Of a DNA stretch of 64,000 nucleotides, positions 11,971 to 33,402 are shown piece by piece. A program made the translations under genes and the position numbers. The number at the start of each line of letters is the position of its first letter. Position 1 is the first letter of the stretch. Below the pieces are notes generated by a model that was not told the DNA's origin, searched no databases, and saw only the letters and a program-made list of their open reading frames with translations. Source of the DNA: a virus (taxonomy: Duplodnaviria; Caudoviricetes); IMG/VR virus record IMGVR_UViG_3300046526_000553, positions 1 to 64,000 of that record. The stretch is one strand, 5' to 3'.

Positions 11971-12012
11971 ATAAACATTATACACCAGCAATAAAGAAAT
12001 ATCAATAGACAA

Positions 12013-13113: not shown

Positions 13114-13569
13114 CTAACCATTATCTTGGTCCACCGAAACTTTGGCAGTGACAGTCACTAAACAATCCAAAAGCGCACCAACACTAGATTGGACAACACT
13201 CCACGTGGATGGCGCAGGAACTACTATTTGACCGGTACCATCCAAACTGTTAGAATTATCTACTGCATCAAGTACACTATCCACCAAAATTCGTCCTTGT
13301 GAAAAAGCACTTTCATAGCCACCATTATCTGTCCCGAGTGGCACAAGAATATCTATGTGGAAAGTATAACTACGAAGGTTCTGAACGGTTGTCAAATATG
13401 TAGAGGGGCTATCTGATGGCGATACGGTAGCCAATGGATAGCCATCGGTAGATTCAACCGTGGGATATTCTACAATTTCAACAAAAGCGTCGCTGCCTTC
13501 CTGCTGTATATTTTGTAAGACATTAACTATAGCCGCACTTATAGTTGTGAAATTGCCCGCCTGACTCAT
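13114..13569 (-). CDS. Tail terminator/completion protein
   Basis: 151 aa acidic protein with YP...V.P and sLdG motifs, directly upstream of the tube gene. Confidence 0.75.
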   Translation of the reverse strand: MSQAGNFTTISAAIVNVLQNIQQEGSDAFVEIVEYPTVESTDGYPLATVSPSDSPSTYLTTVQNLRSYTFHIDILVPLGTDNGGYESAFSQGRILVDSVLDAVDNSNSLDGTGQIVVPAPSTWSVVQSSVGALLDCLVTVTAKVSVDQDNG

Positions 13570-13662: not shown

Positions 13663-14178
13663 GTGTTGGCTGATTGATTATTGATAATCAATATAAATCA
13701 GTTGATGCACCTTACCCCCCTAACTAACAAATGTTAGATTGTCATGGATTGTGCCATTAAAGTTGTTACCCTCACTTCTGAAATGCGCTTTTTTCCTTAC
13801 AGAGGTTTCGAAAAACCCTGGGTTTCGACCTTGGGATGAACGAAGTAGTTGTTGCCAACCACGTTCGGTGCGAGCGATAGCATAAAGTGCGTCCCCACAT
13901 GTGCTTTTGGCAAGCCATACATGTGCGAAAGGTGTCTTCATTGACACGGGTGGCTAGAAGCCCGATACTTTTGGTTTGGGCAGTTCACCTCTTTTACCCT
14001 CAGAGATAAGGATGCATTCCATGGCAGACTAATCCCTTCAATTTTTATTTTTACTCCCTGCCCGGAATAGTAAAAATTAGCATACGTTGTGTTATCCAAG
14101 AATTGAAGGGTGTAGAAAGCCTTCTAGTATATGGTCAAGATGCCCACCCTCTTGGCTGGTAGCTAGAAGGCTTTTATG
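13663..14178 (+). ncRNA. Candidate large structured ncRNA (~515 nt), unclassified
   Basis: Promoter, more than 10 helices including long-range 13734-13748/14018-14032 and 14034-14046/14098-14110, G-U pairs favouring the + strand, terminal hairpin plus U-tract. Confidence 0.7.
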
Positions 14179-14920
14179 TTTGAGCGTTATTCATTTCATA
14201 CCGAGTCTGTATACGAACATAACCACCATCTATCCCGTGGTCGGCTTCAATAGCAAGTTCATTATCTCCAGGCACAATAGCCCAAAAGCTACTGTCATTA
14301 ATATATTTGAGCAAACTATTCCCGATAACTTCATGGCTATACATATCTACCACGATTTCATGGTCGGCAGGTATTACGCAACTCAAACCAATAAAGGAAT
14401 GTACCGTATTATTCTCAAGCCGTGGATAATCTAATGGTCCTTGGAAGCTAACTTCAATATACATATCCTTTGTTTCATAATTTTTATAGCTTATTTCTTG
14501 TTTGTATTGGTCGAGCTTTTCAGGCATTTCGAAAGAAATGGTATAATCATGTGACATTGAATGCCGTTTTATTTTTTCAAGCGTAGGCGAATAACCATAG
14601 CCTGTCATTTCACCGTTAATTTTATCTTGTAATAACTTTTTGTCTTGCTTAGATTTTTTAGCTATTTCTTTCTGCCAGGCAATATACCGTTCGTTCATTA
14701 ATCTATTTGTCACCTGAGCGCTGTATGCATACATATAAGGCCAGTAATCATGGTCTTTGAAGTCTTCATTCTTTAAAGCCTTAGCTCCATGTTTTTTTTC
14801 TGGTTTAACTTTACGAACAAATAAATAAGTTTTGCAGTTTATATATTTTATGGGGATATTTCTTGTATTTATAGAGAATAAGTCTAATTGTGAATCAGTT
14901 GTTTTATATAACCCCATCAA
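14174..14920 (-). CDS. Hypothetical protein with C-terminal siphovirus Dit-like segment
   Basis: C-terminal IVVD...FWAIVPGDNEL resembles phage tail-component C-termini; own TTGATT-N17-TATAAA promoter. Confidence 0.5.
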   Translation of the reverse strand: MMGLYKTTDSQLDLFSINTRNIPIKYINCKTYLFVRKVKPEKKHGAKALKNEDFKDHDYWPYMYAYSAQVTNRLMNERYIAWQKEIAKKSKQDKKLLQDKINGEMTGYGYSPTLEKIKRHSMSHDYTISFEMPEKLDQYKQEISYKNYETKDMYIEVSFQGPLDYPRLENNTVHSFIGLSCVIPADHEIVVDMYSHEVIGNSLLKYINDSSFWAIVPGDNELAIEADHGIDGGYVRIQTRYEMNNAQT

Positions 14921-14991: not shown

Positions 14992-15831
14992 TCATTCTGA
15001 AATATTTATTTTAATAGGTGTGGGGTCACTTTCATAACGCCAATTCTCACCAGACTCTCTATACCAAATACCAACTGTTGTATATTCAGATGGTATGATA
15101 TTTTTACCATTTTCTAATAAATGCGTACAGGCGATTGACCAATCTATAACAACCCTGTACCCTGCCTTACGTTGGTCATATGCATACACAACATCAGGAC
15201 CTAGGCTCTCAGCTTCATACCTATAATGAGCAGCTTTATATGATGAGGTGTACGTCACATAACAATACCAGCCACAGCCATCAACTTCACGTATGCCCCA
15301 TTTCTTATAACGTATACTGGTAATTTTATTTGGATGTTCTAATGGCTCAATCATCCATGCACCAATAATCGGAGATGTCCAGCGACCCACTTCTACCCCA
15401 CTAGATACAGCTATATCATCGTCAGCCGTCAAATTTTCCATTAATTTAGAAAAAGCATTCGGCGGTGCGATAGTATCATCTTCCAAACAAAACACAAAAG
15501 CCGTCTTAGATAATAACTCTTTACTTTTTTCTTTCATCATACAGATTCGTTCACGGCGGTATGATACATCTGCGAATTCACCAGGATATGATTTACCGGA
15601 TTGGTATAACTTAGCACCATTAAATTCCTGCCCGTGGTCATTCATCCAGTTGCTAAGTATAAGCTGCAGGTCGTCATCGTTCGTGTCATTCAAAAAAATT
15701 ATTTCCATCGATTGTCGAGGTAATATCATAGTTTCTAAGCTTTTTAAGAATGGTTCGGCACACCAAAGTCGAGTAAAGGGGACAAATAGTGAGTAGCTAG
15801 GGTCATTAGGATATTTGACAATTTTTAGCAT
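14992..15831 (-). CDS. Glycosyltransferase, GT-A fold (GT2-like)
   Basis: LEDD (DxD-like), VDGCGWYC, LGPDV, C.H motifs. Confidence 0.85.
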   Translation of the reverse strand: MLKIVKYPNDPSYSLFVPFTRLWCAEPFLKSLETMILPRQSMEIIFLNDTNDDDLQLILSNWMNDHGQEFNGAKLYQSGKSYPGEFADVSYRRERICMMKEKSKELLSKTAFVFCLEDDTIAPPNAFSKLMENLTADDDIAVSSGVEVGRWTSPIIGAWMIEPLEHPNKITSIRYKKWGIREVDGCGWYCYVTYTSSYKAAHYRYEAESLGPDVVYAYDQRKAGYRVVIDWSIACTHLLENGKNIIPSEYTTVGIWYRESGENWRYESDPTPIKINISE

Positions 15832-15929
15832 TAAATAAATAACTCCTTAGTGTCATCTTAACAGTCTGTGAATGAGCCTGCAATGAGAAGAGGTTGCATT
15901 CATGACTTTTTTGCCATACAATAGCTCCT

Positions 15930-16256
15930 ATGGACGTTGCAGACGATTTTCACGACCATGATGATGACTCGCTAGACCACGAGTGTGAATGCCCGTGCCA
16001 TGATGGTGGTAAACATGAATATCGCCTGATGAGGGGTTATGATATCGAAGGCATCAGTATACGGGAAGTCGTCTGTGATAAGAACGATAAGATAGTTGGT
16101 TGGGCATCTCCTGAATTGATGCCGACAGCGACTATCAAAGAAGCTAAGGAAAACTTAGAATATACCATTGATGATTTGATGGATATGCATACCGCTTTTG
16201 ATAAGCCAATCCTTGATGAAGTAAAGCTGGAAGCTGAATTAGAAGTTAACGATTAA
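15930..16256 (+). CDS. Hypothetical acidic protein with His/Asp/Cys-rich N-terminus
   Basis: DDFHDHDDD..HECECPCH; promoter TTGCAT-N17-TACAAT, 7 nt to ATG. Confidence 0.7.
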   Translation: MDVADDFHDHDDDSLDHECECPCHDGGKHEYRLMRGYDIEGISIREVVCDKNDKIVGWASPELMPTATIKEAKENLEYTIDDLMDMHTAFDKPILDEVKLEAELEVND

Positions 16257-16258
16257 TT

Positions 16259-16429
16259 ATGGTAGATGCCAAGCAAGTTATTGCCAAGCTAAAAATCATT
16301 GAGGGTATGGCACCTGAGGTTAGTGTCAAAGAACTCTGTAAAGTTATGGAAGAATTTATTGAGAATGATAATAAATCTGATATTGGGTTTATCAATGGCG
16401 AAGCAGATAAATCAAAAACTAAATCTTAG
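16259..16429 (+). CDS. Small hypothetical protein (56 aa)
   Basis: MVDAKQVIAKLKIIEGMAPEVSVKELCKVMEEF... fills the gap between flanking genes exactly. Confidence 0.65.
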   Translation: MVDAKQVIAKLKIIEGMAPEVSVKELCKVMEEFIENDNKSDIGFINGEADKSKTKS

Positions 16430-16432
16430 ATT

Positions 16433-16897
16433 ATGGCAATAGAACATACTAAAGTTAAAATGCTTCATAACGCTGTTAAAGAAGACATGAACATATTAGA
16501 TTACAGTTATGATAATAAAAATAACGCTATCTTCTTTGATAAGCTGACCGAAGGAAATGCTAAGATTATTTCTGCCAATCCTAACATGCGAATCTCAGCT
16601 ATCAAAAGATTGTTCGAAGATACCCATATAGATATAGTTCACATTCATGCGAATAATGAGACACCAGTTTTCCTTGCCATGGTGAAAGCTATGCTGAGAA
16701 GAGACCACCCGATTGTTTTTGTATCGATTGATAGAAAAAAAATCAAACCATCATATGACACCTTTATCGATTATGTGAAAAGTTTTATGGTATCGGTCGG
16801 GTATAGAAGCATGTATATCGGTCGAAGCCCCGGCATGGAGACACCATCTGATTATGTTTTTACTTATGAATATCATCCTAGCAAGGTTATTTTATGA
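16433..16897 (+). CDS. Degenerate FkbM-like methyltransferase domain
   Basis: IDIVHIH...E..V..AM...L.R.HPIVF resembles the FkbM C-terminal half; no SAM motif I. Confidence 0.45.
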   Translation: MAIEHTKVKMLHNAVKEDMNILDYSYDNKNNAIFFDKLTEGNAKIISANPNMRISAIKRLFEDTHIDIVHIHANNETPVFLAMVKAMLRRDHPIVFVSIDRKKIKPSYDTFIDYVKSFMVSVGYRSMYIGRSPGMETPSDYVFTYEYHPSKVIL

Positions 16898-17871
16898 AGA
16901 TTTCATATGTATCCAACATTACCAATTTGGCGAGCGACGGGAAATCTTTTAATACAGAATTTCATGTTGGTAAAACTCTTGAGAAATTAGGTCACGAAGT
17001 AAATTTTATTCAGGAGAATTTGATAGCTGGTGGCGAGCTACCAAAACTTATTGCAGGTTCAGATTTATTTCTCTGGACTAGAACATGGCCCGATATCGTC
17101 ACCAAAGAAGACCTGAAAGCTATCGAAGCCATGGGAATCCCTACGGTCAGTTTTCATCTAGACCTTTATTCCAATATTGCCAGAGATGGTGGGCTAGGTA
17201 TAAAAAGCACATTCTGGGATACACAATATATATTTTCACCCGAAGGCAGCATCCAATCACAAAGAACTTTTAGACAAAAGGGCATCAACCAATTTTATTT
17301 GCCACCAGCAGTTTTTGAAGAAGATTGCTACATTACTAAGCCGGTTGAGAAATTTAACTTTGACGTGGTATTTGTTGGAGGTGGGGTAGACTATGGTCAC
17401 CCGGAATGGAGACCTTATAGAACTAGATTAGTCAATTTCTTAAGAGAAAATTATGGAGATAAATTTGGTAAATTCGGGCACCCAGAACCAACTATTCGAG
17501 GACACGAATTAAATCAATTATATTCCTCCTGCAAAATAGTGATTGGCGATAGTCTATGTAAGGATTTTACCGATTATGATTATTTTTCGGATAGAATGTT
17601 CGAAGTTACTGGACGGGGAGGTATGATTCTAATGCCCTATATTCCTCATGTTAGTGATTTTTTCAGGGATAGAGAAGAAGCGGTATTCTATGCGTTCAAC
17701 AATTGGGTACAACTGAAAAATCTAATTGATTATTATCTCACCCCAGAAAATGAAGCTGAGAGAGAAGCTATTCGCAAGGCTGGTCACGAAAGGACTAAAC
17801 GTGAAAATACCTATACGCAACGTATGGAAAAAATGTTAAGAATTTTAAAAGGAGAAGGAGCTATAAAGTGA
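16894..17871 (+). CDS. Glycosyltransferase GT-B (CgeB/YkvP-like)
   Basis: DVVFVG, SDRMFE..G.G, AIRKAGHER...HTY-like motifs. Confidence 0.9.
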   Translation: MKISYVSNITNLASDGKSFNTEFHVGKTLEKLGHEVNFIQENLIAGGELPKLIAGSDLFLWTRTWPDIVTKEDLKAIEAMGIPTVSFHLDLYSNIARDGGLGIKSTFWDTQYIFSPEGSIQSQRTFRQKGINQFYLPPAVFEEDCYITKPVEKFNFDVVFVGGGVDYGHPEWRPYRTRLVNFLRENYGDKFGKFGHPEPTIRGHELNQLYSSCKIVIGDSLCKDFTDYDYFSDRMFEVTGRGGMILMPYIPHVSDFFRDREEAVFYAFNNWVQLKNLIDYYLTPENEAEREAIRKAGHERTKRENTYTQRMEKMLRILKGEGAIK

Positions 17872-18335
17872 AAACAAAATTGAATCTTGGTGCCGGTCTA
17901 CAGCCAAAGACGGGTGAAGAATGGATTAACCTTGATATCGTACCTCTGCCCAATATAGACATGGTATACAATTTAGTCTTTTTGCCATACCCATTCGAGA
18001 ATGAGCAGTTCGAATTTATAATGGGGGAAGATATCCTTGAACATTTGCCACATTTCACAACCGACTGGAGACCATTCATCCCAGTTTTCATGGAAGAAAT
18101 GTACCGCATACTGAAACCAAACGGAGCGATGTATTTCCGTAGCCCGAGTGTCAATGCTAAGTTCGCTTGGACCGACCCGAGCCATACTAGAACTTTCACC
18201 AAAGATAGCATGGGTTTCTTCGACCCAGATAATGAATTCGGCGTCGCATCGGGCTTTATATCCACGGCTCGTTTCCATGTGAAAGCTGAAGAAACTGAGA
18301 ATGGGAATCTTATTTTTAATATGGTAAAAATATGA
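17868..18335 (+). CDS. Class I SAM-dependent methyltransferase
   Basis: LNLGAG, WINLD, ILEHL, EMYRILKPNG, DPSH. Confidence 0.9.
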   Translation: MKTKLNLGAGLQPKTGEEWINLDIVPLPNIDMVYNLVFLPYPFENEQFEFIMGEDILEHLPHFTTDWRPFIPVFMEEMYRILKPNGAMYFRSPSVNAKFAWTDPSHTRTFTKDSMGFFDPDNEFGVASGFISTARFHVKAEETENGNLIFNMVKI

Positions 18336-18351
18336 GTCGTGGAGATAGGCA

Positions 18352-19854
18352 ATGGGCAAAGCACTAGACTTAACTGGCATGCAGGTTGGTAGGCTTACTG
18401 TAATCGAGAAGTCACAACTTAAGATTTGGCCAGGAGGCGCGCGGGTTTGGTACTGGAAGTGTAGATGCAGTTGTGGCAATTATGTTGAAGTTTCTAGGTC
18501 AAACCTACGTAATAAGAGAACACAGTCATGCGGTTGTATTACGCGCGAGAGGATGCATGAACAGGGTCAAAGCTTAGCTAAGTCCAGAAGCCCTGAGCGC
18601 GATATTTTTAGTCACATGCGAAGTTCAGCCAAGAAGAGAGGATTGGCTTTTGAGTTGAGTTTTGAGCAAGTGGCAGCTCTTATTATGATGCCCTGTAAAT
18701 ATTGTGATCGCATAGGTGTCAGAACGTATTTATACAAGGGAAGGTTACAGGAACAGGCTGTGCGATACAATGGCATTGACCGTCGTGATAATTCACTTGG
18801 GTATACAGAAATAAACAGTGTTCCATGCTGCTGGGATTGTAATAGGTCAAAAGGTGCCCTCGATGAAGCAGCATTCCTGGAACATTGCCAGCGAATGGCT
18901 GTAAACGCCAAGGTGCTCGTGCTTGGTGGTTCGGGATATTTGGGCGGTGTATTAACGACATACTTAGGTTCCCGTCAAGTTAGAGTATATGACTCACTTC
19001 TATATGAAGACGAATACCTCAAACCTGTTCCGTTTGTATATGGTGATGTTAGAGATTATGAGAAGCTGAAACAACAGCTTGATTGGGCTGATGCTGTGAT
19101 AATATTATCGGCTATCGTGGGAGATGGAGCCTGCGCATTAAACCCGCTGACTACTGTTGAAGTTAATTATGACTCGGTAAAGTTTATAACAGATAATTTT
19201 GATGGTCGGATTATCTTTTGCTCGACGGCCAGTGTCTACGGTGCTCAGGACGGATTGCTTACTGAGGACTCACCGACTAACCCGTTGTCGTTATATGCTA
19301 GTACAAAGTTAAAGGCGGAGATACTCTTAAATAATAAGAACGCTATAATATTCCGCCTTGGTACTCTATTCGGACTGGGCGACCGCTACTCTCGTATGCG
19401 TTTAGACCTAGTAGTTAATACACTGACTGCTAGGGCGGCTTCTGGGCAACCGCTTAAGATATTTGGCGGGGAACAATATCGTCCATTACTACATGTTAAA
19501 GATGCTGCCTTTGCTATTATTAAGGCCCTAAGTGTAAACTCTAGCACTGGCGTGTTTGATACGGGTATATTTAATCTTTGTCAAACAAACATGAAGATTA
19601 TAGATTTAGCCTATGAGGTTCAGCATCTTGTCCAAGACACTGAGTTGGAGATTATAAACACAAAATTTGAAGACGCCCGCAATTACAAGATGAGTACCAA
19701 AAAAGCTGTTGATACTTTTGGATTTGCCCCAGAGGTTACCGTTAGACAAGCCATTTATGATATACGGGATATTGTTGAGGCCGGTCGTATCAAGAATATT
19801 GATAATCCTCGCTATACTAATCAGGGATTTCTCACAAATCTGGGTAATTATTGA
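18352..19854 (+). CDS. HNH-type endonuclease domain fused to NAD-dependent NDP-sugar epimerase/dehydratase
   Basis: N-terminal GRLTV..WKCRCSCG..SCGC and CKYC..NGIDRRDN..CC..CN..KG; C-terminal GGSGYLG, YASTK. Confidence 0.85.
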   Translation: MGKALDLTGMQVGRLTVIEKSQLKIWPGGARVWYWKCRCSCGNYVEVSRSNLRNKRTQSCGCITRERMHEQGQSLAKSRSPERDIFSHMRSSAKKRGLAFELSFEQVAALIMMPCKYCDRIGVRTYLYKGRLQEQAVRYNGIDRRDNSLGYTEINSVPCCWDCNRSKGALDEAAFLEHCQRMAVNAKVLVLGGSGYLGGVLTTYLGSRQVRVYDSLLYEDEYLKPVPFVYGDVRDYEKLKQQLDWADAVIILSAIVGDGACALNPLTTVEVNYDSVKFITDNFDGRIIFCSTASVYGAQDGLLTEDSPTNPLSLYASTKLKAEILLNNKNAIIFRLGTLFGLGDRYSRMRLDLVVNTLTARAASGQPLKIFGGEQYRPLLHVKDAAFAIIKALSVNSSTGVFDTGIFNLCQTNMKIIDLAYEVQHLVQDTELEIINTKFEDARNYKMSTKKAVDTFGFAPEVTVRQAIYDIRDIVEAGRIKNIDNPRYTNQGFLTNLGNY

Positions 19855-20291
19855 TGGAACCAGAACTAATCATTGGTGATATTGCGGTTGATGATAGAGG
19901 TCAAATCAGTTTCGTTAATGATTTTAAGTTCAAAGATATCAAACGGTTTTATATCGTATCGAATCATAAAGCAGGCTTCATTAGAGCTTGGCACTCGCAT
20001 TTGCATGAACCAAAATATGTCATGGCTATAAATGGAACTGCTTTAGTAGGGGCTGTCAGAATCGATGACTTTGATAACCCAGACCCTCATGCGTATGTTA
20101 ATCAGTATATTTTATCAGATAAGAAGCCAACCATTTTGTATATACCAACTGGGTTTGCAAACGGCTCAATGTCTTTAACGGACAACATGCAACTCATGTA
20201 TTTTGCCACCACAACTTTAGGAGAGACTACTAAAGATGACCAACGTTATCCCTATGATTATTGGGATATCTGGAAAGATAATCCACGGTGA
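19851..20291 (+). CDS. RmlC-like cupin (NDP-4-keto-6-deoxyhexose epimerase/isomerase)
   Basis: DDRG, IRAWH.H..E, LYIP.GFANG. Confidence 0.85.
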   Translation: MMEPELIIGDIAVDDRGQISFVNDFKFKDIKRFYIVSNHKAGFIRAWHSHLHEPKYVMAINGTALVGAVRIDDFDNPDPHAYVNQYILSDKKPTILYIPTGFANGSMSLTDNMQLMYFATTTLGETTKDDQRYPYDYWDIWKDNPR

Positions 20292-21139
20292 GTAAAACAA
20301 ATGTAGTTTGCTTCGGACGTAACGGAATGCTCGCAAGCATGATTATAAAAGTATTATCTGAAGACCCTGCTTTGAACGTAACAATTATAGATAGAAATTT
20401 TATTAATGCACGCACGGCTGATATACCAGAAATTGGTCAGGCTTTGAGTAAAGTTCAGCCAAAATGGATTATTAATTCAATAGGAATAATCAAGCCAAAA
20501 ATTAAATTTACCGAAGAGGCGATTCAGGTTAATTCGTTGTTCCCGTATAGGCTAAATGAAATTGCAAAAGTCACTAATGCCAAAGTTATCCAGATAGCCA
20601 CTGATTGTGTATATTCCGGCAGAAACGGCAACTATGTCGAATCCGACTCTCATGATGCATTGGATGTTTATGGCAAAACCAAGAGTCTGGGCGAAGTTGA
20701 AGCTAATAACTTCTATAACTTACGCTGTTCAATCATCGGTCCTGAACAAAAATCTCACCTTTCATTAATGGATTGGCTGCTCGGTCAACCGAATAGTGCA
20801 GAAGTGGATGGGTATATTAATCATTATTGGAATGGCATAACTAATTATCAATTCGCTAAAATATGTCAGGGCATTATTAAACATAATATTGAACTACCGA
20901 ATGTGCAACATATCGTTCCTGCTAATTCAATAACAAAAGCTGAGTTATTAAAAATCATATCGCATCTGTTTGACCGGAAAGATATAACTATCAACGATAT
21001 AGAATCTCCAACCAATGTATATCGAACTTTGTCCACCGACGATTGGTCAATGAATGAAAAGCTATGGGATAATGCAGGATATATCAACATCCCCACAGTG
21101 GGGGAGATGGTAAAGGAACTGGCGGAGTATACAAAATGA
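20288..21139 (+). CDS. rfbD: dTDP-4-dehydrorhamnose reductase-like
   Basis: G.NGML, IATDCVYSG, YGKTK..GE, LR.SIIG. Confidence 0.85.
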   Translation: MSKTNVVCFGRNGMLASMIIKVLSEDPALNVTIIDRNFINARTADIPEIGQALSKVQPKWIINSIGIIKPKIKFTEEAIQVNSLFPYRLNEIAKVTNAKVIQIATDCVYSGRNGNYVESDSHDALDVYGKTKSLGEVEANNFYNLRCSIIGPEQKSHLSLMDWLLGQPNSAEVDGYINHYWNGITNYQFAKICQGIIKHNIELPNVQHIVPANSITKAELLKIISHLFDRKDITINDIESPTNVYRTLSTDDWSMNEKLWDNAGYINIPTVGEMVKELAEYTK

Positions 21140-21894
21140 AAATTCAAATGGTTATTCCCTATCTAAATTTCCAATGGTGTCTGGAAGATATGTTGGAATC
21201 GTTCGGGCAGAGTGATATCCCAATATTGATTGTGGATAATTCACCGAATCATGATTTATCTCAACCCAAATTTACCATACCCCCAAATGTTACTATTCAG
21301 CCCACAAGACATAACATCGGCGTGGCTGCATCATGGAATTTAGGTCTTCGGTTAGAGGCTGACCAAACAGTTATCTGTTCACAATGGGTTCGGTTCGCAC
21401 CTTCAGAAATAGAACAACGCCCCGCAAACTGGGGGTTAAATCATGTTGCCAGAATTATGAATGAAAACCCCAATGAATGGGGATATAATTTCGGTGACCA
21501 GGGCTTTCATTTAATCTCGATAGGTAGAAAAACAGTAGAAACCATTGGTTATTTTGACGAGAACTTTAACCCGTGCTTTGGGGAAGATGATGATTTCATG
21601 TTCAGGATGCAACTTGCAGACCCCCCTATTATGATGGGAGGCTTTCCTAATTGGTCGGCCTTAGGCATTCATTCCATTGCTTTCAGTGTTCATAAACGTG
21701 ATGGCACTGTTAATATTGATACACGAGCATTAGATTATTATTCCCACAAATGGTGTAGTGTGTTTAAAGATTATCCTGGCAATTTTACACGACCGTTTAA
21801 TAATCCAAGCAATCCTCTCGCATACTGGCCTGAAGTCAGGGGTGGTTCAGGTAAAAATTGGAACGATGTTCCGACATACGAAGGAGGCATATAA
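21136..21894 (+). CDS. Glycosyltransferase GT2-like (paralog 1)
   Basis: LIVDNS, N.GVAASWN.G, IGYFDENF...EDDD. Confidence 0.85.
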   Translation: MKIQMVIPYLNFQWCLEDMLESFGQSDIPILIVDNSPNHDLSQPKFTIPPNVTIQPTRHNIGVAASWNLGLRLEADQTVICSQWVRFAPSEIEQRPANWGLNHVARIMNENPNEWGYNFGDQGFHLISIGRKTVETIGYFDENFNPCFGEDDDFMFRMQLADPPIMMGGFPNWSALGIHSIAFSVHKRDGTVNIDTRALDYYSHKWCSVFKDYPGNFTRPFNNPSNPLAYWPEVRGGSGKNWNDVPTYEGGI

Positions 21895-22659
21895 ATGGCT
21901 ATAAAATGGCAAGCCGTATTACCCTTCGTACATCGCCCATATATGGAAGCATGTGTTGCCACTATGTCAGAGGAATTCATAAAGCATACCTTAATTGTGG
22001 ATAATTCTGATTTGAATAATAATATTGGCTGCATGGCAGCTCATAATCTTGGTATTGAAGAAATGAGAAATAATGATGCAGAATGGTTGATAATATTGTC
22101 ACCAGTGATTAGATTCGGCAAACCTGGTGGGATGGATTTTGTGCAAGTATTGGCAGAACATATGAACCATTATATTATTCATGCTGCTAGTTATGAGGTT
22201 ACCGGTGGTCTTCAGCACAAACCTGAAGTACCAAACGAAGTTAACAAAATCAAAGGGTGGCATGCCACAGCTTTTCGTAATTCCCTGTTTGATAACATAG
22301 GTACTTTCGACAATAATTTCGCCCCATATAGTTTGGATGATATCGATTTAAGCTTAAGGGTTCAGAAATTTTATAAAGGAATGTTTGGTTGGAATACTTA
22401 TCCTTGTGATATTGATGATATTGGCCCTATGGGACACAGCATAAATCTAGCCGGTGTAAAAGCAACCTATGCTCCTAGAGAAAGTTACTTTAAGCGTAAA
22501 TGGGGGCGTGGAGGCGCTGACCCAACCATGGGTTATGAACATCCATTTAATGACCCGTCAAAACCTTTAAGCTATTGGCCTGAATCAGACGATGAATTAT
22601 CCATATGGCAGAATGAATACAAATCAGGTATGATTGGATATACCTATACAGGAGAATAA
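21895..22659 (+). CDS. Glycosyltransferase GT2-like (paralog 2)
   Basis: LIVDNS, NIG...HN.G, IGTFD.NF...DD.D. Confidence 0.85.
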   Translation: MAIKWQAVLPFVHRPYMEACVATMSEEFIKHTLIVDNSDLNNNIGCMAAHNLGIEEMRNNDAEWLIILSPVIRFGKPGGMDFVQVLAEHMNHYIIHAASYEVTGGLQHKPEVPNEVNKIKGWHATAFRNSLFDNIGTFDNNFAPYSLDDIDLSLRVQKFYKGMFGWNTYPCDIDDIGPMGHSINLAGVKATYAPRESYFKRKWGRGGADPTMGYEHPFNDPSKPLSYWPESDDELSIWQNEYKSGMIGYTYTGE

Positions 22660-23439
22660 ATGATGGCTTACGGCGATACGCATGATGTGCAATGGAAAAA
22701 TGCAAAAATACTTAAGACCGATGACTTACCCCATCCTGAAGGGACTTGGAGGTATGAAGTAATCCTGCCTGATTTTCTGGCTGATTGGGATGTCCTCGCT
22801 TCTTGGGAGGCTGAGCGTACTGTTAGCATGGAAAAGAATCTCAAAAAGGGAGATATACTCTACGATGTGGGAACCGAAAAAGCTTGGCAGAGTGCAGTCT
22901 ACGCACAATTCGTAGGTGGGGCACAGAATATGGTTCTGATTGAACCGAGCAAAGTATATTGGCCGAATATAAAACAAATATTCGAAAACAATAAACTTGG
23001 TATGCCGAGGGCATGTTGGGTTGGACTGGTTGGAAATGAAATTGAAGGCAATATAAAAGGTTTAACTATTAATGAATGGCCTGATATATCAAACGGCGAA
23101 CTATATGATGGATTAACTTATGAATATATCCATGAACATAGTAAGCATACTAGCCAACTGACCATTGATGAACTCGTTCTTCTGACCGGAGCCATTCCTG
23201 ATGCTATAACTTGTGATATTGAAGGGGCTGAAATTGTTATGGTTAAGGGAGCTGAACAAACATTGAAAAAATATCATCCTAAAGTATGGCTAAGTCTTCA
23301 CGATGAAATCGCAATACGTGATGGCTATGGAGATGTTCAAAACGTCCATGATTTCATGAAAGAAATGGGCTATCCTCAAGGTTTACATTTAGCAACGGAC
23401 CACGAGTCTCACTGGTATTGGCATTATGGATTGGGATAA
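22660..23439 (+). CDS. FkbM-family methyltransferase
   Basis: LYDVG, IEP, CDIEGAE..V.GA..TL...P. Confidence 0.9.
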
Positions 23440-23956
23440 GATAGGTATCAAATATGGCTGCGATAAAGCCAGTAGCCACCATGGTTATCTAGATGTCTAT
23501 CAAGATATATTGAAAGACCATAAAGTAGATAAACTATTAGAACTCGGTGTAGCTCATGGCAAATCTTTATTTATGTGGAGCGAAATATTCCCCGAAGCAT
23601 TAATAGTCGGAGTAGATAACGAGCCTGAATGCCGCATGCATCAACGCCGTAATATTGATGTTGTTATCGCTGATAGTACCGACCCTTCAAAAATGGCAGC
23701 CGTGTCACAATTATACGGTCCATTCGATATCATCATAGATGATTGTATACATGAAATGCAGCCAGTGAATATGGCATTCGGTGAATTATGGTGGCGACTT
23801 GAGCCGGGAGGTATATATATCATTGAAGATTTGGATGGAGCTGACGAAGAAGTACAGAAATTCTTAGAGTTATGGGATGCCAAATTCCTTGCATGTGAGG
23901 ATAGGGTCGGATATACCAAAAAACCGGGACTTATCGTGGTAGAGAAACTGAAATGA
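23426..23956 (+). CDS. Class I SAM-dependent (sugar O-)methyltransferase
   Basis: YG.DK...[29 protein letters not shown]. Confidence 0.9.
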
Positions 23957-24678
23957 AATATGTGATGTGCCTGCCATATATCTATAAACCTTACGCTGAT
24001 GCATGTATCAATTCGATGGATGCTGAACTCAGAAACAATCTACTGGCTATAGACAACACCATAGACAATAAAGGAGTGGCAAAATCCTGGAATCTTGGCA
24101 TAGATAAGGTGAGGGAAGAGAATGCTGACTGGTTAATAGTTATAAGCGCGGCCATGCGATTTGGTAATTCGGGTGGTAAAGATATGATTATATGGTTAAA
24201 TTATCGTCCAGCCGCACAGGTAATACATTTTGCGGAGAAACAAACATCTGAACAACGGTACGTTCGTGGAATGAGCCCAGATGGTATCCATGGAATAAGC
24301 CCAGGTTATCAGGATGGTATGTTTGGGTGGCATTGTACTGCTCTAAGAAGGGATGTAATTGATATGGTTGGCTACTTTGACCCCAATACATTTGAAGATT
24401 TGGATTATGACCTTAGAATCAATAAAGCTTTTCCTGCTATTTTTTGGGTAATACTGCCCATAATTGCACATAGCGAAAGCCTGAATCATGGTATAAGATT
24501 AGGGAATGCCAAAATGCCTTCTGCCAATTCTCAGGTTACTTATTTTATCGATAAATGGGGTGCTGGTGGTAGCGATTGGTCGAACGGCTGGCAAAATCTT
24601 ACCTTCGACCATCCATTTAATAACCCTGAAAATAGCTTAACACACATACTTAGTGATAAAGAGCATGGAAATGATTAA
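23953..24678 (+). CDS. Glycosyltransferase GT2-like (paralog 3)
   Basis: IDNT, N.GVA.SWN.G, VGYFD...ED.D. Confidence 0.85.
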
Positions 24679-26395
24679 GATTCCAGTTATACATTTAAGC
24701 TATGATAATAAGATACCATCTGGTCTCAACCGTGATTATTGGGACGGAGGTATGGTACGTGATTTGCTCGAAAACAAATGGTGGGATACAGGTTATGAGT
24801 TTGTTCACTCCGAAAGAGTTGATGGGGATGAAGTATTAATAATACCTGCAGATATCGATGGTGCTATTATTGTTCTCCCTGCTCGCAACCAAACAGAATA
24901 CATAGATAGGCTCAATGAAGATATTGCACAGCTTAAATGGGTAATATTGATGGTTATGGGAGATGAAGAGAATAGTTTTCCGGTAGAGCAAATTAGACAC
25001 AATAATATAAAAATCTGGGTGATGTCCCCTCGTCCCGGTCGCCATGAAAAATACGATAAACTTGGTACCGGATACCCGCATCATATGCATAAATATATAC
25101 CTAAGCGAGCACCCGATAAACCACTTGACTTTTTCTTTGCCGGGCAAATCACACATCCCAGACGTGAACTGTGCAGACAAGCATTAGAATTTATATTAAA
25201 ACATGTTGTAGCCAATGAGCTTAAAGGCGAAGCTTATTATTCTGAGGGATTCACCCAAGGCTTAACTCATAGTGAATATTTTTCTAAAATGCTATCAGCT
25301 AAGAGCGGGGTTGCCCCAAGCGGTCCTCAGACCCCTGACAGTTTTAGAATTTTTGAATTATTAGAAGCAGGTTGCGTACCGGTAGCCGATACATTCACTG
25401 ATAAAGATGATTTCCAAGACGATTACTGGGCATTTTTCTTCGATGAGTTTCCGCCATTCCTTATTTTAAGAGACTACGATAGCCTATTACATTGGTTTAC
25501 GTATGCTAAGGATAATTATCCAGCTTTGAATAATAAAGTGTTTGCTTGGTGGCAAGGGAAAAAAAGAAAAGCTGCCCTAAAAATTAGAGACCAGATTCAT
25601 GAGTTAAGTGGTATCGCTCCAGAAGTCACGGTGGATAATCAAATCACTGTATTAATACCGACAAGTTACGCACAGCTGCATCCATCGACTGGAGATATTG
25701 AAATAACCATAGATACTGTTAGGGGGCATTTGCCAGATAGCCCAATTTTTATCATGATAGATAGCCTACGTCCTGAATTGGAATCAAAGAAAGAAGTTTA
25801 TGAAGAATATCAGCGTCAACTCATTTGGTTATGCACCCATAAATATCATAATGTGTTACCCATCCGTTATGAGGAATTCAGCCATCAATCAGGTATGACG
25901 AAAAAAACATTACCTATGGTTGAGACACCATATATATTGTATGTTGAACATGATACTCCTTTGACCCCTGACCGACCGATTGAATGGGATAAACTGATAG
26001 CAACTATCAGTGAAGGCGATGCTAACGTTATCCGACTAAATCATGAAGCCCTCATTTTGCCAGACCATGAACATCTTATGATAGGTGAGCCAGAGTTGGT
26101 GGGTTCATTAAAGGCTCGGATGCGTAAAACATTCCAATGGAGTGGTAGACCGCATCTTGCATCGACCGCTTTCTACAGAGACATGTTAGATAGATATTTT
26201 TCTGAACACCCACAGTCATTTATTGAAGATAGGGTGTATGGCTTCCTAAATCAAGCCTATGAGACGGAAGGGACGATGGGATGGAATTTATGGCGTGTGT
26301 TCGTATATACACCTGAAGGTGAAAGTATCTTAAGGTCGTATCATCTAGATTCAAGACAGGGAGAAAATAAATTTGATGAAATTCAAAAATTTTAG
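24671..26395 (+). CDS. Bifunctional glycosyltransferase: exostosin/GT47-like plus GT-A domain
   Basis: N-terminal FFFAGQ...APSG...SFRIFE.LEAGC.PV; C-terminal ITVLIPT...TPYILYVEHD...HLD.R. Confidence 0.75.
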   Translation: MIKIPVIHLSYDNKIPSGLNRDYWDGGMVRDLLENKWWDTGYEFVHSERVDGDEVLIIPADIDGAIIVLPARNQTEYIDRLNEDIAQLKWVILMVMGDEENSFPVEQIRHNNIKIWVMSPRPGRHEKYDKLGTGYPHHMHKYIPKRAPDKPLDFFFAGQITHPRRELCRQALEFILKHVVANELKGEAYYSEGFTQGLTHSEYFSKMLSAKSGVAPSGPQTPDSFRIFELLEAGCVPVADTFTDKDDFQDDYWAFFFDEFPPFLILRDYDSLLHWFTYAKDNYPALNNKVFAWWQGKKRKAALKIRDQIHELSGIAPEVTVDNQITVLIPTSYAQLHPSTGDIEITIDTVRGHLPDSPIFIMIDSLRPELESKKEVYEEYQRQLIWLCTHKYHNVLPIRYEEFSHQSGMTKKTLPMVETPYILYVEHDTPLTPDRPIEWDKLIATISEGDANVIRLNHEALILPDHEHLMIGEPELVGSLKARMRKTFQWSGRPHLASTAFYRDMLDRYFSEHPQSFIEDRVYGFLNQAYETEGTMGWNLWRVFVYTPEGESILRSYHLDSRQGENKFDEIQKF

Positions 26396-26401
26396 GATAC
26401 T

Positions 26402-27502
26402 ATGAAAGTCGCACAAATTGTTTGCTCAACTAAAACCGGTCTAGGTATCCAGGGTAAGTCATTTTATGATAACTTTCACCCTGATTCTGTAATGGTTGTG
26501 GATATTGGTGAGCTCAATGGTTATGAACAACACCCTGAATGGTATCCTGATGGTTATTTTGTTAAAGGATTGCAGCTTGACGATGAAATTCGTCACTTTA
26601 TCGATGGGCAAAAAATGGATATAATCTTTGTAACCGAAAGTGCCTATTCTTTTTATGTCTACGACTATGCTCGTTATAGGAATGTACGTGTGATTAATCA
26701 ACAAAATTACGAATTTAACGATTATATTGCTAATCCTCAGATGACTCCACGTCCCGACGCTTTTATCTCTCCATCAATGTGGCATTATGATGATGTACAA
26801 AACTATTGCGATAGATATAATATCCCTCACACCTATCTTCATTGTCCTGTAGATAGAAAACAATTTCCATTTCGGGAAATAAGACAAGCTAAGACATTTA
26901 TCCATAGTGGTGGTCGGAGCGCTATACATGATAGAGCTGGTACATACGGCGTTATAGATGCTTCACGTTATGTTAAGTCTAATGTTAAAATAATTGTTCA
27001 TTTTCAAGGCAATCAAGGTCTAGCGCATCAGTTAACCTCAACAACTAATGACTACGTTGAGTATGCCAAAAAGTATGGTGATATGAATAAATTAGAATTT
27101 GTCATGAAAGATTTTGAGAATCAAGCCGATATATATCAGTTGGGAGATGTTTATATTATGCCTCGTCGTTATGGTGGCAACAACTTACCTATGGGTGAAG
27201 CGTTATCCTCCGGTCTACCTGTGATTATGACGAATATCAGTCCTAATCGAGATTTTCTACCCAGCTATTGGTTAATTCCTGCAAAGAAGATAGACACCTT
27301 CACACCTCGAACGACTATTGATATTTACGAAGCAGACGTAAAAGAACTCGCCAAAAAGATAGACGAATTTGCCACCGTAGATTCTGCAGATATGCTACGA
27401 GAGAATAAAAAAGCTGACTTTCTTGCTGAAAGTATTTCTTGGACATCTTTATTGCCACGATATCGTTCATTCTTTGAAGGTGTTATTAATCATAAAGCTT
27501 GA
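26402..27502 (+). CDS. Glycosyltransferase GT4-like
   Basis: DVYIMP...G..LP..EALSSGLPVI.T. Confidence 0.9.
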   Translation: MKVAQIVCSTKTGLGIQGKSFYDNFHPDSVMVVDIGELNGYEQHPEWYPDGYFVKGLQLDDEIRHFIDGQKMDIIFVTESAYSFYVYDYARYRNVRVINQQNYEFNDYIANPQMTPRPDAFISPSMWHYDDVQNYCDRYNIPHTYLHCPVDRKQFPFREIRQAKTFIHSGGRSAIHDRAGTYGVIDASRYVKSNVKIIVHFQGNQGLAHQLTSTTNDYVEYAKKYGDMNKLEFVMKDFENQADIYQLGDVYIMPRRYGGNNLPMGEALSSGLPVIMTNISPNRDFLPSYWLIPAKKIDTFTPRTTIDIYEADVKELAKKIDEFATVDSADMLRENKKADFLAESISWTSLLPRYRSFFEGVINHKA

Positions 27503-27575
27503 TTCTATTTTAATTGTAACCTATATTTTTTTGATAACATAGGTGATTTTTGTCACTAGCAATGTGACTTGTTGC

Positions 27576-28112
27576 TTATTTGCCAGTAGCTTCTTTGATA
27601 AGTAGTTGTCGGGCTTCGGCAAATGTCATTCTAACAATCGGGAAGGCTAAATCCCTACCTTTTTTCATAAAATGAGTTGCCCTCTGACCTTGTTGCTTTG
27701 TCCCGATTATGAAATATCCACCTCTGTTAGATGAACCCCAACCAGGATTAATTTTTGTAGCCATAACTTGTTTAGCTATTGGTCTGATATATGTTGAGGC
27801 ACCTGATTGATTCGGATTGCCACTTGACTTTTCTCCGTGCAAGCCAGTTCCTTCTTCGACAGCCCATGCATACGATAATTTCGGGTCAACAAAAACAACC
27901 GCTGTATTTTTTTTAATGACATATCGTATAGATTGTCGTAACTTGCCTGTCCTAACCGGAACCTGACTCATCACAAGACCCTGTGTCTGTATAGCAGCCT
28001 TTTCAAGCGTCTTCTGGATTATAACATCATATCTAGCAGGGGCTACACCAAAATGCTCTGCAATGTCCAGTAAATTGGGCATATCTATATATAAAGGCAT
28101 AGCAACAGGCAT
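27576..28112 (-). CDS. HK97 gp10-like tail completion/neck protein
   Basis: PVRTGKLRQSI, YA..VE.GT, G..A.HFM. Confidence 0.9.
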   Translation of the reverse strand: MPVAMPLYIDMPNLLDIAEHFGVAPARYDVIIQKTLEKAAIQTQGLVMSQVPVRTGKLRQSIRYVIKKNTAVVFVDPKLSYAWAVEEGTGLHGEKSSGNPNQSGASTYIRPIAKQVMATKINPGWGSSNRGGYFIIGTKQQGQRATHFMKKGRDLAFPIVRMTFAEARQLLIKEATGK

Positions 28113-28450: not shown

Positions 28451-29416
28451 TTAAGAAGATATACGATATCTCTTCCAGATATTTAATAAGTTCAATGAAT
28501 CGGGGTGGTCTTGTAATTGACGGCGCAAAGTCAAGTCAAATTGAATCTGGTAATCTCCAGCTTTCTCCATATGTAATCCGCCTGCTCGGCGAAGATTATA
28601 CATGATAGCACAGATATCCAATGTAGCTAATTGAATATCGGCTGGGACTCCAATATAACCATAGTAATAAGAAACTAGAATTGTTTGATAACCGGCAGCT
28701 ATCGACCCGTAAAATGAATTATCATTATCACCAGAATACGCTGCCGAATCATATGAATTGAAGTATGCTCCACCCAAAATTATACGTCCGTCATCCCTTG
28801 GTACATATTGTGTGTGGTCAAGTAATACAGGCTGGGCAATATTCCGCAGACCAATATATAATGTATCCACACTCCGTAAATCGGTATTCGGAGTAAAGAT
28901 AGTTTTACCCACCAACCCGTCAAACTGCTTCTGTTTCACATATTTATAGTTCTGGACATAATTACCAATATAGCCTAGATAGGTACTACCTCCAGCTGGC
29001 AGGGCTTGGGTGTTTGTGGGGGATAGCGTTCCTTTAGAAACACTAGTATCAACCGTAACCTGAGTCGGTGTTAGCACATTAACTATTTTAAAGACACCAT
29101 TGAATGAGGGATTGTTGAACCCGAAGCAACTGATATTCTGGTTCAGGACAAATGGAATAGCCCCCATGGTCGTGACTGTTAATAACGAACCTGAAACCGA
29201 AAAGTTTATAACTGCTATATTATCTGAATTAGAATAGTCGGTATCAGGGCTATCACCGGGGTCTCCCCAGCCGAAACTTCGTTGCGTGAAAGTGTCAACA
29301 AAACGCTGAACGCCTGATATTAAAGTTGTCAAATAGACATCTTGACTGTTATCGCTATCAGATAATTTTAAATAAGATTTTAGTGTGGATAAATCAGTAT
29401 ATTGTGCTTGTGCCAT
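28451..29416 (-). CDS. Head-tail adaptor (gp6/gp15-like) with inserted beta domain
   Basis: YT.L..LK.YL....D..L..LI; Y..GY..VP.DI..A; GDY. Confidence 0.85.
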   Translation of the reverse strand: MAQAQYTDLSTLKSYLKLSDSDNSQDVYLTTLISGVQRFVDTFTQRSFGWGDPGDSPDTDYSNSDNIAVINFSVSGSLLTVTTMGAIPFVLNQNISCFGFNNPSFNGVFKIVNVLTPTQVTVDTSVSKGTLSPTNTQALPAGGSTYLGYIGNYVQNYKYVKQKQFDGLVGKTIFTPNTDLRSVDTLYIGLRNIAQPVLLDHTQYVPRDDGRIILGGAYFNSYDSAAYSGDNDNSFYGSIAAGYQTILVSYYYGYIGVPADIQLATLDICAIMYNLRRAGGLHMEKAGDYQIQFDLTLRRQLQDHPDSLNLLNIWKRYRISS

Positions 29417-31394: not shown

Positions 31395-31578
31395 ATGGGG
31401 GTACTTAATGGCAACCGTCGGGTCCTTAAGCCGCTTAATAAATAACGGGTTATAACTGTTACTTAGTCCCATGGTACTTGAGCTTTTCAGGCCAACTAGC
31501 TCAAGGCTCGTAAATGGAAAAGCCGAGGATAACATCGAACCCTGCTGGGAGACTTCATGGTTGGATGCCTCGGCTTTT
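31395..31578 (+). ncRNA. Candidate ~185-nt structured RNA upstream of the mom-like gene
   Basis: TTGACG-N17-TAGTGT; multibranch ATGGG/CCCAT, CTTGAGCT/AGCTCAAG, terminal AAAAGCCGAGG/CCTCGGCTTTT. Confidence 0.55.
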
Positions 31579-31595
31579 GTGTTAATATTAAATAC

Positions 31596-32823: not shown

Positions 32824-33402
32824 TTATTCTCCTCTCCTATTCTTTTCCCATTGTTCGAATTCTGGATAAGTTTCTAAAGGTTTTGTGGGACGGCCTAAAA
32901 ACCAACCACGCTGTCTATTTAATTCATTATGTAGTTTGATATGTTCTGAACGGGTCATGACTTGTAGGTTACGTTCATCATTATCTGTTTTGATTTCATT
33001 TTTATGGTGAACAACCTCATCAGGATTTAATTTACGACCAATCATTTGTTCGGCAATAACTATATGTTCAGGTGTGTATTTACCATTCACCTTTATTTCT
33101 TTATAGCCTTTACTGTTCAAAAACCATCCTCTTTTGTAGACCCAAGGGGAGCCTTCTCCCTGTCTATCTATACTCTGTTGTTTATACATATGTTCACTGG
33201 AACAATATACTTTTTTATGCTTTAACCTACTGGGGATACATTCCCCCTCAATACCACAATAGGCACAGTTGAATTTAACTTTGTTTCTTTTTACTAATCC
33301 CATGCATTTAGTTGAACATGTTTTAGCGTCAAGACGATTATACCAAGGGTGGAATGGCTCATTACATCCTTCACAAATATTCCAAATCTCAGCTCGTCTC
33401 AT
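32824..33402 (-). CDS. HNH endonuclease with Zn ribbons
   Basis: EH..IAE..IGR.L...EVVHHKNE.K.DN...NL. Confidence 0.9.
   Translation of the reverse strand: MRRAEIWNICEGCNEPFHPWYNRLDAKTCSTKCMGLVKRNKVKFNCAYCGIEGECIPSRLKHKKVYCSSEHMYKQQSIDRQGEGSPWVYKRGWFLNSKGYKEIKVNGKYTPEHIVIAEQMIGRKLNPDEVVHHKNEIKTDNDERNLQVMTRSEHIKLHNELNRQRGWFLGRPTKPLETYPEFEQWEKNRRGE

Follow-up and report, generated by a model that had tools for sequence, protein, structure and literature searches.

Experimentally shown glycosylation of phage particles is reported in secondary sources only for a few mycobacteriophages (PMC12363180, PMC12619734). In two of them, Che8 and Corndog, capsid and tail tube are reportedly glycosylated by glycosyltransferases (GTs) of the phages' own (PMC12363180, PMC12619734), and Myrna is listed as a further example (PMC12363180, PMC12619734, PMC13313380). 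Here we analyse a 64,000-nucleotide stretch of DNA, referred to as the window, which forms the first 64 kb of the 143,778-bp virus record IMGVR_UViG_3300046526_000553 (94% complete according to CheckV), and in it an island of 15 open reading frames (ORFs) at positions 14992-27502. A first-pass annotation of the window had claimed seven GT genes with eight GT domains in the island, a count that Pfam, PHROG, paralogy and structural models all bear out. The island is organized around a five-gene cassette whose signature gene encodes an exostosin-like two-domain GT, FUS, and we consider it somewhat better than an even bet (probability roughly 0.55) that this cassette serves the cytoplasmic glycosylation of the phage's own virion proteins, in preference to modification of the host envelope or of DNA. 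The abstract of Freeman 2023 is said to find little evidence for virion glycosylation in other phages. GT islands within the structural modules of phages are already known, and the cassette with its exostosin-like signature enzyme is an unstudied variant of them.

In genomic position, both mycobacteriophage systems have a counterpart here. The genes for Che8 gp108-110 immediately precede the terminase gene at the right end of the genome, the same slot that the cassette occupies in relatives of the window phage, and those for Corndog gp35-38 lie inside the head module, as the window island likewise lies among structural genes, from neck to tail. The mycobacteriophage systems further resemble the cassette in their phage-encoded soluble GTs and in the methyltransferases found in relatives. 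They comprise two to four GT domains, whereas the cassette comprises five to eight and adds the exostosin-like two-domain enzyme, and the window island, unlike them, has its own sugar-nucleotide enzymes. Homology to Che8 gp110 or Corndog gp38, the GTs that capsid glycosylation requires, was considered and is not significant, as comparison of family hidden Markov models (HMMs) with hhalign gave only E 0.005-0.13 over 26-36 residues, corresponding to a generic GT-A motif. A second point of comparison comes from the chloroviruses, in which soluble GTs including the GT47-like A075L, together with two O-methyltransferases, assemble a capsid glycan that is methylated and capped with rhamnose (PMC9614988, PMC11571054). 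The PBCV-1 enzymes A064R, A061L and A075L match the role proposed for the cassette in being cytoplasmic and virus-encoded and in using no host endoplasmic reticulum or export machinery (PMC9614988, PMC11571054); unlike the cassette, they belong to a eukaryotic giant virus, make N-linked glycans and are encoded by scattered genes.

A conserved five-gene cassette

To define the core of the cassette, ORFs were called and clustered in the 80 best FUS-bearing viral loci. The core order is fixed, GTB1 > FkbM > FUS > GTB2 > GT2, and is complete in 25 loci and present without GT2 in 18. Homologues of GTB1 (up to 66% identical) occur in 62-63 of the 80 loci and those of the methyltransferase FkbM in 53-54; GTB2 homologues follow FUS directly in 73-75, and GT2 homologues, up to 43% identical, lie directly 3' of GTB2 in 35. 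A large-terminase gene is found 3' of the core on the same strand in 47 of 77 loci, with a median distance of 2.6 kb from FUS, and is usually followed by portal, scaffold/protease and capsid genes. Among the carriers are two complete genomes of 35 kb with terminal repeats, and in one of them, L010, the cassette ORFs total about 6.4 kb, equivalent to 18% of the genome.

Judged by gene content and order, the window island reads as an enlarged, partly inverted copy of this conserved phage cassette, which the first-pass annotation had not recognized among its genes. Compared with the core, it has gained an epimerase/reductase pair and two extra GT-A paralogues, an HNH-like domain is fused to a short-chain dehydrogenase/reductase (SDR), and the block from GTB1 to GTB2 is inverted, with GT2 keeping the orientation of the structural genes. 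Four loci (L008, L009, L037 and L050) have 9-10 of the 15 island genes in common with the window in conserved order, among them the small methyltransferase, one GT-A paralogue, the Methyltransf_24 gene and an SDR. In a quick maximum-likelihood tree, the window FUS clusters with those of L006, L008 and L009 (Shimodaira-Hasegawa-like approximate likelihood-ratio test, SH-aLRT, 99). The second GT-A paralogue and the Methyltransf_24 protein are 54% and 57% identical to their L009 homologues, respectively, and homologues of the small methyltransferase (50% identical) are located after GTB1 in six loci, among them L008, L009, L037 and L050.

The three GT-A genes of the island are mutual paralogues (blastp 1e-11 to 1e-39). 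The model of the second one matches GT2-type enzymes in Foldseek (8e-7 to 2e-5), namely TarS, TarP, ppGalNAc-T2, SpsA and a Leptospira GT, and in its family alignment (A4) residues D149/D151 are invariant, as are E117/D119 in the alignment of the GT2 family (A2). A profile comparison of A2 with A4 was not significant. Profile searches of the PDB with GTB1, GTB2, GT2 and the GT-A paralogues returned weak generic GT matches only, those of GT2 being to RmlT and SpsA.

The signature enzyme is abundant in metagenomic data. There are 440 full-length FUS homologues at 31-55% identity in a set of 5.8 billion proteins, a FUS profile retrieved 3,449 representatives among 1.84 billion (709 at E<=1e-30), and FUS is encoded in 170 IMG/VR stretches. 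Neither FUS nor GTB2 was found by tblastn in 50,697 GenBank phage records, and a literature search returned no study of exostosin-like GTs in bacteriophages. With 709 signature-enzyme clusters, the five-gene cassette is thus widespread in uncultured phages, while FUS and GTB2 are unseen in GenBank phages. GTB1 is the only one of FUS, GTB2 and GTB1 with homologues there, in nine Streptomyces phages, and their GT (for example Lizz gp31) is a true homologue at 26% identity (family HMM 4e-64). Lizz gp31-33 form a trio of GT, nucleotidyltransferase and methyltransferase with putative function that closes the late operon; phages of this type, unlike cassette carriers, have no FUS and no GTB2.

Among species-representative genomes, full-length FUS is present in five contigs binned as Saccharibacteria, three Nocardia genomes, several metagenome-assembled genomes of Actinomycetota and a few others. 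A further copy lies at 38459-60081 of a 151-kb scaffold of Mycolicibacterium moriokaense DSM 44221 (L091, QQBJ01000015.1), in the order GTB1 > FkbM > FUS > GTB2 > GT2 > terminase > portal, followed by a scaffold-capsid fusion gene. The locus is prophage-like, because the canonical cassette is followed by terminase and portal genes within the scaffold. Prophage-like loci with full-length copies are also present in Nocardia, and both genera are members of the group of hosts for which glycosylated virions are proven.

FUS, an exostosin-like two-domain enzyme

The database gene call for FUS begins 6 codons downstream of the start used here (24653). In the structural model, residues 26-309 form a GT-B domain of putative GT47/exostosin-like type and residues 319-560 a GT-A domain. 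The N-terminal domain superposes on PBCV-1 A075L with a Z of 14.5 (root-mean-square deviation 3.9 over 232 residues, 15% identity), with other GT-B enzymes scoring equally well, and the sequence-profile match between the two has an E-value of only 0.027. The C-terminal domain matches B4GALNT1 (Z 16.8) and polypeptide N-acetylgalactosaminyltransferases (ppGalNAc-Ts; Z about 14), and the family alignment (A1) contains the invariant residues E426 and D428, an acidic motif of metal-binding type in the GT-A domain. The exostosin family model PF03016 scores 25.3 bits on the window FUS, below its cut-off of 33.4, and matches 23 of 30 relatives, with a best value of 2.3e-8; PF03016 or PF24785 (Exostosin_GT47 or RXYLT1_C) is detected in 23-25 of the 30 family members.

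Over its full length, FUS finds its best Foldseek matches in EXT1/EXT2 and EXTL3 (1.7e-12 to 3e-10, against about 3e-6 for single-domain matches). In these heparan sulfate polymerases (GT47 + GT64), as in the FUS model, a GT-B domain that looks GT47-like precedes a GT-A domain bearing a DxD-type motif. The polymerases differ from FUS in sequence and overall shape (less than 12% identity, template-modelling score, TM-score, about 0.3), FUS has no membrane anchor, and its C-terminal domain is closer to B4GALNT1 and the ppGalNAc-Ts than to GT64. FUS represents a new bacterial-virus branch of an enzyme family that is mostly known from eukaryotes and giant viruses.

The likeness to the EXT proteins raises the question of whether FUS is a co-polymerase, similar to EXT1/EXT2 or the K4 chondroitin polymerase (K4CP), that makes a long repeating polymer. 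The shared domain order and the two-domain matches are in line with such an activity, K4CP is also among the matches, and the remaining GTs of the cassette could make a primer. We nevertheless regard polymer synthesis as quite unlikely, since the TM-scores to the EXT proteins are so low, the relative orientation of the domains differs and single FUS domains match many non-polymerizing GTs equally well. The halves of FUS are moreover separate genes in several relatives (L102, L105-L107, L109, L111 and L112), and a polymer free in the cell would have no export route. If the polymer were instead anchored to the virion as a 'phage proteoglycan', this explanation would overlap with virion glycosylation: the GT-B and GT2 enzymes would prime a virion protein and FUS would polymerize a methyl-capped repeating disaccharide, a version that we likewise hold to be doubtful. 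FUS also occurs in larger fusion proteins (826-967 residues), joined to GTB2 in P0132, P0186 and P0213 and to FkbM in P0256; a natural GTB1+FUS fusion exists, and P0205 is among the GTB2-like/GTB1-like/FkbM fusion proteins. Together, the fusions and the split halves fit one pathway of separable catalytic modules.

Sugar modification and the acceptor of the glycan

Three methyltransferases in the island are supported by family matches (FkbM, Methyltransf_24 and Methyltransf_11-like), and a fourth that the first-pass annotation had counted was not found. The Methyltransf_24 protein has, in addition, a weak match (1e-3) to PF04989, the rhamnosyl O-methyltransferase/CmcI family. The proposed trio of nucleotide-sugar enzymes stands as far as its members are concerned, since Pfam places an SDR, a cupin epimerase and an RmlD-like reductase side by side, but the first of them is not demonstrably a 4,6-dehydratase. 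Its NCBIfam matches to GalE (1e-14) and to dTDP-glucose dehydratase (2e-13) are about equal and both are far below the equivalog cut-offs. The same is true of the cupin (26.6 against a cut-off of 155.75; RmlC entries in the PDB at about 1e-4) and of the reductase (rmlD equivalog 51.1 against 224; dTDP-4-dehydrorhamnose reductases in the PDB at 8e-8 to 5e-4). The best PDB match of the SDR is 6vo6 (1.6e-33), an entry annotated only as a putative epimerase/dehydratase, which we take to be the Campylobacter jejuni C4 dehydrogenase Cj1427. Cj1427 acts alongside a 3,5-epimerase and a 4-reductase (PMC10680097), and the C. jejuni trio for capsular heptose modification, Cj1427/Cj1430/Cj1428, resembles the island trio in enzyme kinds and gene order (PMC10680097, PMC7949155). 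The order SDR, cupin 3,5-epimerase, SDR 4-reductase is shared by the island trio and either RmlB/C/D or the Cj trio. The deoxy-sugar that had been proposed as the product is accordingly not secured: an epimerized non-deoxy sugar is equally possible, and the trio may yield an epimerized rather than a 6-deoxy sugar.

Nor is the island self-contained, as had been suggested. Unlike the RmlABCD pathway to dTDP-rhamnose, it has no RmlA, and a search for RmlA-type nucleotidyltransferases (PF00483) was negative across the 143.8-kb genome, with 14 of 14 control genomes positive. The host must therefore supply nucleoside diphosphate (NDP)-sugar and S-adenosylmethionine (SAM). Homologues of the SDR are 56-67% identical; some are encoded on contigs as long as 713 kb, two carry the name Saccharibacteria/Saccharimonadales, and one is fused to a cupin epimerase. 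The idea that the SDR is a phylum-wide host gene of Saccharibacteria was rejected, as only 4 of 151 sampled genomes contain it at 1e-40.

The enzymes of the island appear to be soluble. Hydropathy analysis revealed in no island protein a 19-residue stretch as hydrophobic as a typical membrane helix, and among 311 core-cassette proteins of relatives just one contains a membrane segment. By hydropathy, used without family models, no protein of the 143.8-kb genome has more than four hydrophobic segments, the multi-segment proteins being the tape measure and small holin-like proteins, and no flippase, ABC exporter, polymerase or initiating phosphoglycosyl transferase was found in the genome (by hydropathy for polytopic proteins). 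These scans agree with the earlier description of soluble enzymes without export machinery. Neither the window phage nor any of four cassette phages with a completeness of at least 94% yielded a tyrosine or serine integrase, which argues against lysogenic conversion as the conserved role of the cassette. A thymidylate-synthase-type hydroxymethylase (PF00303) is likewise missing, both here and in five small cassette phages, of which four reach a completeness of at least 94%.

We favour glycosylation of virion proteins because the enzymes are soluble, no export route is encoded and the unit is conserved beside packaging and structural genes, and because relatives occur in Mycolicibacterium and Nocardia, with neither an integrase nor a hydroxymethylase. 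It is the reading that fits best, as the first-pass annotation had held, although the missing flippase on which that argument leaned is by itself compatible with the extension of host lipid-linked or wall polymers. Soluble GTs could, with a host primer and exporter, extend or decorate such a polymer, for example a teichoic-acid-like or arabinogalactan-like polymer or an S-layer glycan, and thereby block superinfection or keep progeny from adsorbing to debris. Prophage TarP, a soluble GT-A enzyme, modifies the wall teichoic acid (WTA) of Staphylococcus aureus in this manner. TarS, TarP and the WTA rhamnosyltransferase RmlT are about as good matches for the GT-A domains of the island as other GTs are, cytoplasmic O-antigen and WTA GTs likewise have no membrane segments, copies of the cassette are found in Mycolicibacterium and Nocardia chromosomes, and the SDR resembles chromosomal enzymes of Saccharibacteria. 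We consider remodelling of the host envelope unlikely all the same. Most carriers look virulent, as judged from the integrases missing in this phage and four near-complete cassette phages, and would gain little from it; the genome encodes none of the initiating, flipping and polymerizing functions listed above and no O-acetyltransferase; and the cassette heads packaging and structural genes instead of lying at a prophage end. Its composition is also constant across phages of differing hosts (Actinomycetota, Saccharibacteria and others), whose wall polymers differ.

Modification of DNA is a further use to which phages put GTs. T-even phages glycosylate modified bases of their DNA, and other phages carry multi-sugar DNA glycans. 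A Mom-like DNA modification gene (31557-32537, plus strand, phrog_1384 8e-17), antisense between head and neck genes and independent of the island, lies just 4 kb away from it, DNA N6/N4 methylases adjoin the cassette in some relatives, and T4 alpha-glucosyltransferase is among the GT-B fold matches of FUS (Z 13.3). Dozens of unrelated GT-B enzymes score equally well, however, and T-even-style glycosylation of a modified base to evade restriction is highly improbable, as this genome and five small cassette phages have no thymidylate-synthase-family hydroxymethylase and the inventory of eight GT domains, several O-methyltransferases and the epimerase/reductase trio goes far beyond what DNA systems are generally known to employ.

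Several observations weigh against glycosylation of virion proteins and temper our estimate. No obvious Ser/Thr-rich tail is present at the C-terminus of the capsid or tube-like proteins, nor on the capsids of related cassette phages. The island GTs show no significant similarity to Che8 gp108-110 or Corndog gp35-38, and in fold they match TarS, TarP and RmlT no less well than they match GTs that modify proteins; GT-A and GT-B folds, known here from models, do not tell whether the acceptor is a protein or a lipid-linked or wall polymer. The island runs for the most part antisense to the structural genes, which excludes co-transcription with them, and the timing of its expression would rest on a weak promoter resemblance. 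The slot upstream of the terminase gene holds DNA methylases in some relatives, so position alone is no proof of a structural role. What the analysis establishes is gene content, folds, conservation, synteny and the lack of membrane-protein, integrase and hydroxymethylase genes; acceptor, sugar, timing and benefit are inferred.

The acceptors are equally a matter for caution. Ser/Thr-rich proteins encoded at 39-58 kb had been put forward as the obvious ones, but their 20-28% Ser plus Thr is an ordinary fibre composition without mucin-like tracts. Only one related cassette phage, L015, shares any of these proteins; on its 29-kb contig, homologues of 49259-51025 and 48029-49258 directly follow the portal gene (L015:11442-14649), in a placement as in the window. 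A subgroup of cassette phages encodes, just after the head genes, collagen-like proteins of 303-1032 residues with Gly-Asp-Thr/Gly-Glu-Thr runs, whereas the genome of the window phage contains no collagen-like tracts. Gly-x-Thr collagen repeats are O-glycosylated in BclA of the Bacillus exosporium, and by analogy the collagen-like proteins are candidate acceptors in this subgroup (L040, L071, L072 and L078).

On the assumption of virion glycosylation, a route from host metabolites to the particle can be outlined. The host would provide NDP-hexose and SAM, and the SDR, the cupin epimerase and the RmlD-like reductase would convert part of the sugar pool, via a 4-keto intermediate, into an epimerized sugar of L-type that is possibly 6-deoxy. 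The eight GT domains would then build, step by step, an oligosaccharide or a short repeating chain on Ser/Thr residues of newly made virion proteins, and the three methyltransferases would O-methylate it. The glycan would exit the cell on the particle, so that neither flippase nor exporter would be needed. The role of the glycan as a shield, which the first-pass annotation proposed, is borrowed from mycobacteriophages and putative here; masking, stability or adsorption may be the benefit.

Setting of the island and wider bearing

Fourteen island ORFs lie on the plus strand (15930-27502), co-oriented, closely packed and mostly overlapping, and one on the minus strand (14992-15831); this one, GT2, is the sole island gene co-oriented with the tail genes. 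The structural genes on either side are all on the minus strand (Table 1). The placement of the island between neck and tail-terminator genes is as first described, except that a Dit-like gene and an RNA gene also intervene on the left. This Dit-like gene is remote from the usual place of Dit genes after the tape measure and separates the island from the tail-terminator-like gene. Inverted repeats that could have caused the inversion were sought at the island borders, and none was meaningful.

The island is old, compositionally native phage DNA and not a recent host capture, because its GC content (0.396) and that of third codon positions (GC3, 0.350) match the values for the remaining genome (0.396 and 0.348). 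Phage contexts also surround all of the closest relatives of the core genes, and both results argue against a recently captured host O-antigen locus. A megablast search of GenBank phages with the island gave no match, and a scan of viral contigs with the head-tail adaptor as query did not yield a relative of the whole phage.

The promoter-like site of the plus-strand block ends 7 nt ahead of the ATG at 15930, in a leaderless-like arrangement. The pattern TTGNNN-N16-18-TACAAT is present at 14 places, compared with 7.7 in shuffles, which is too weak for dating expression, and an argument for late expression of the island was dropped because this excess is not statistically distinctive. The site does not have the GYGTATAnT extended -10 typical of the 65-140 kb region. 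This element, often with TTGACA ahead, has 27 of its 33 genome sites beyond 64 kb, in that non-structural region, and its near-absence from the structural region suggests two promoter classes.

Two small proteins at the start of the plus-strand block have no homologue in related loci, and the first of them (108 residues) has no Pfam, PHROG or NCBIfam match either; it is followed by a 56-codon ORF (16259-16430, plus strand) with no detectable relative. The HNH-like domain runs into the SDR without a stop codon before the Rossmann motif VLVLGG, and the protein-database gene call starts the combined protein at residue 68. Free-standing HNH genes are located within the structural operons at 11008-12012, 32824-33402 and 33399-34316. 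A further GT2-like ORF of 170 residues (67136-67645, minus strand; PF00535 3.5e-7, above cut-off) is present 3 kb past the end of the window.

Table 1. Coordinates of the island genes, flanking structural genes, predicted signals and collagen-like genes (window positions unless a locus is given)
Feature	Position	Strand	Evidence or remark
GT2-like GT, core gene GT2	14992-15831	-	PF00535 4e-4 (weak)
108-residue acidic protein, His/Asp/Cys-rich N-terminus	15930-16256	+	Opens the plus-strand block
154-residue protein, weakly like GT4 N-terminal domain	16433-16897	+	PF13439 1.4e-3, PF13477 2.5e-3, below cut-offs
GT-B GT, core gene GTB1, Glyco_trans_1_2 type	16894-17871	+	PF13524 3.1e-21
Small probable SAM methyltransferase	17868-18335	+	PF08241 5.8e-4; 20.9 bits, cut-off 21.2
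HNH-endonuclease-like domain, in-frame with SDR	18352-18897	+	Cys clusters, GIDRRDNSLGY...CCWDCNRSKG
Nucleotide-sugar SDR, putative C4 oxidase or dehydratase	18898-19854	+	PF01370 8e-28
Cupin 3,5-epimerase-like, RmlC/FdtA type	19851-20291	+	PF00908 4.7e-9, 36.6 bits, above cut-off
RmlD-like 4-keto reductase	20288-21139	+	PF04321 5.6e-16, 58.9 bits, above cut-off
GT-A GT, first of three paralogues	21136-21894	+	phrog_29879 'galactosyl transferase' 3.4e-15
GT-A GT, second of three paralogues	21895-22659	+	AF2 (AlphaFold2) model, predicted local distance difference test (pLDDT) 82, GT-A fold
FkbM-family methyltransferase, core gene	22660-23439	+	PF05050 1.2e-8
Class I SAM methyltransferase, Methyltransf_24	23426-23956	+	PF13578 4e-8
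GT-A GT, third of three paralogues	23953-24678	+	blastp 2.6e-39 to 21895-22659
Two-domain GT FUS, signature gene of core cassette	24653-26395	+	Model pLDDT 88, predicted TM-score (pTM) 0.90
GT-B GT, core gene GTB2, GT1/GT4 type	26402-27502	+	PF13692 6.6e-6, PF00534 3e-5 (weak)
Promoter-like site TTGCAT-N17-TACAAT	15894-15922	+	98-bp divergent gap; consensus match only
Terminator-like hairpin	27552-27568	+	Pattern scan; 73-bp convergent gap ahead of neck gene; consensus match only
Tape measure	6835-10353	-	
Tube-like gene	12013-13017	-	
Tail-terminator-like gene, left flank	13114-13569	-	Atlas feature score 0.95-0.96, TM-score 0.73-0.77 to tail-terminator clusters
Dit-like (distal tail protein) gene	14174-14920	-	Pfam SPP1_Dit C-domain 2e-7, Atlas score 0.93
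HK97-gp10-like/Neck1 tail-completion gene, right flank	27576-28112	-	PF04883 8.5e-7, phrog_5 9e-13
Head-tail adaptor	28451-29416	-	
Major capsid	34616-35734	-	
Portal	58828-61368	-	
Collagen-like protein in cassette phage	L040:18434-20296		
Collagen-like protein in cassette phage	L071:18185-21283		
Collagen-like protein in cassette phage	L072:18382-21480		
Collagen-like protein in cassette phage	L078:10397-11308		

The copy of the cassette in the cultured strain M. moriokaense DSM 44221 makes its function testable at the bench. If FUS did build a virion-anchored polymer, many uncultured phages of Actinomycetota and Saccharibacteria would carry a polysaccharide coat, and the pathway would be a viral, cytoplasmic counterpart to glycosaminoglycan-style synthesis of the EXT type. 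If the cassette glycosylates virion proteins, as we favour, particle glycosylation would be common in soil and water phages, with a bearing on adsorption, on particle stability, on immune recognition in phage therapy and on how 'auxiliary metabolic' sugar genes of phages are read.

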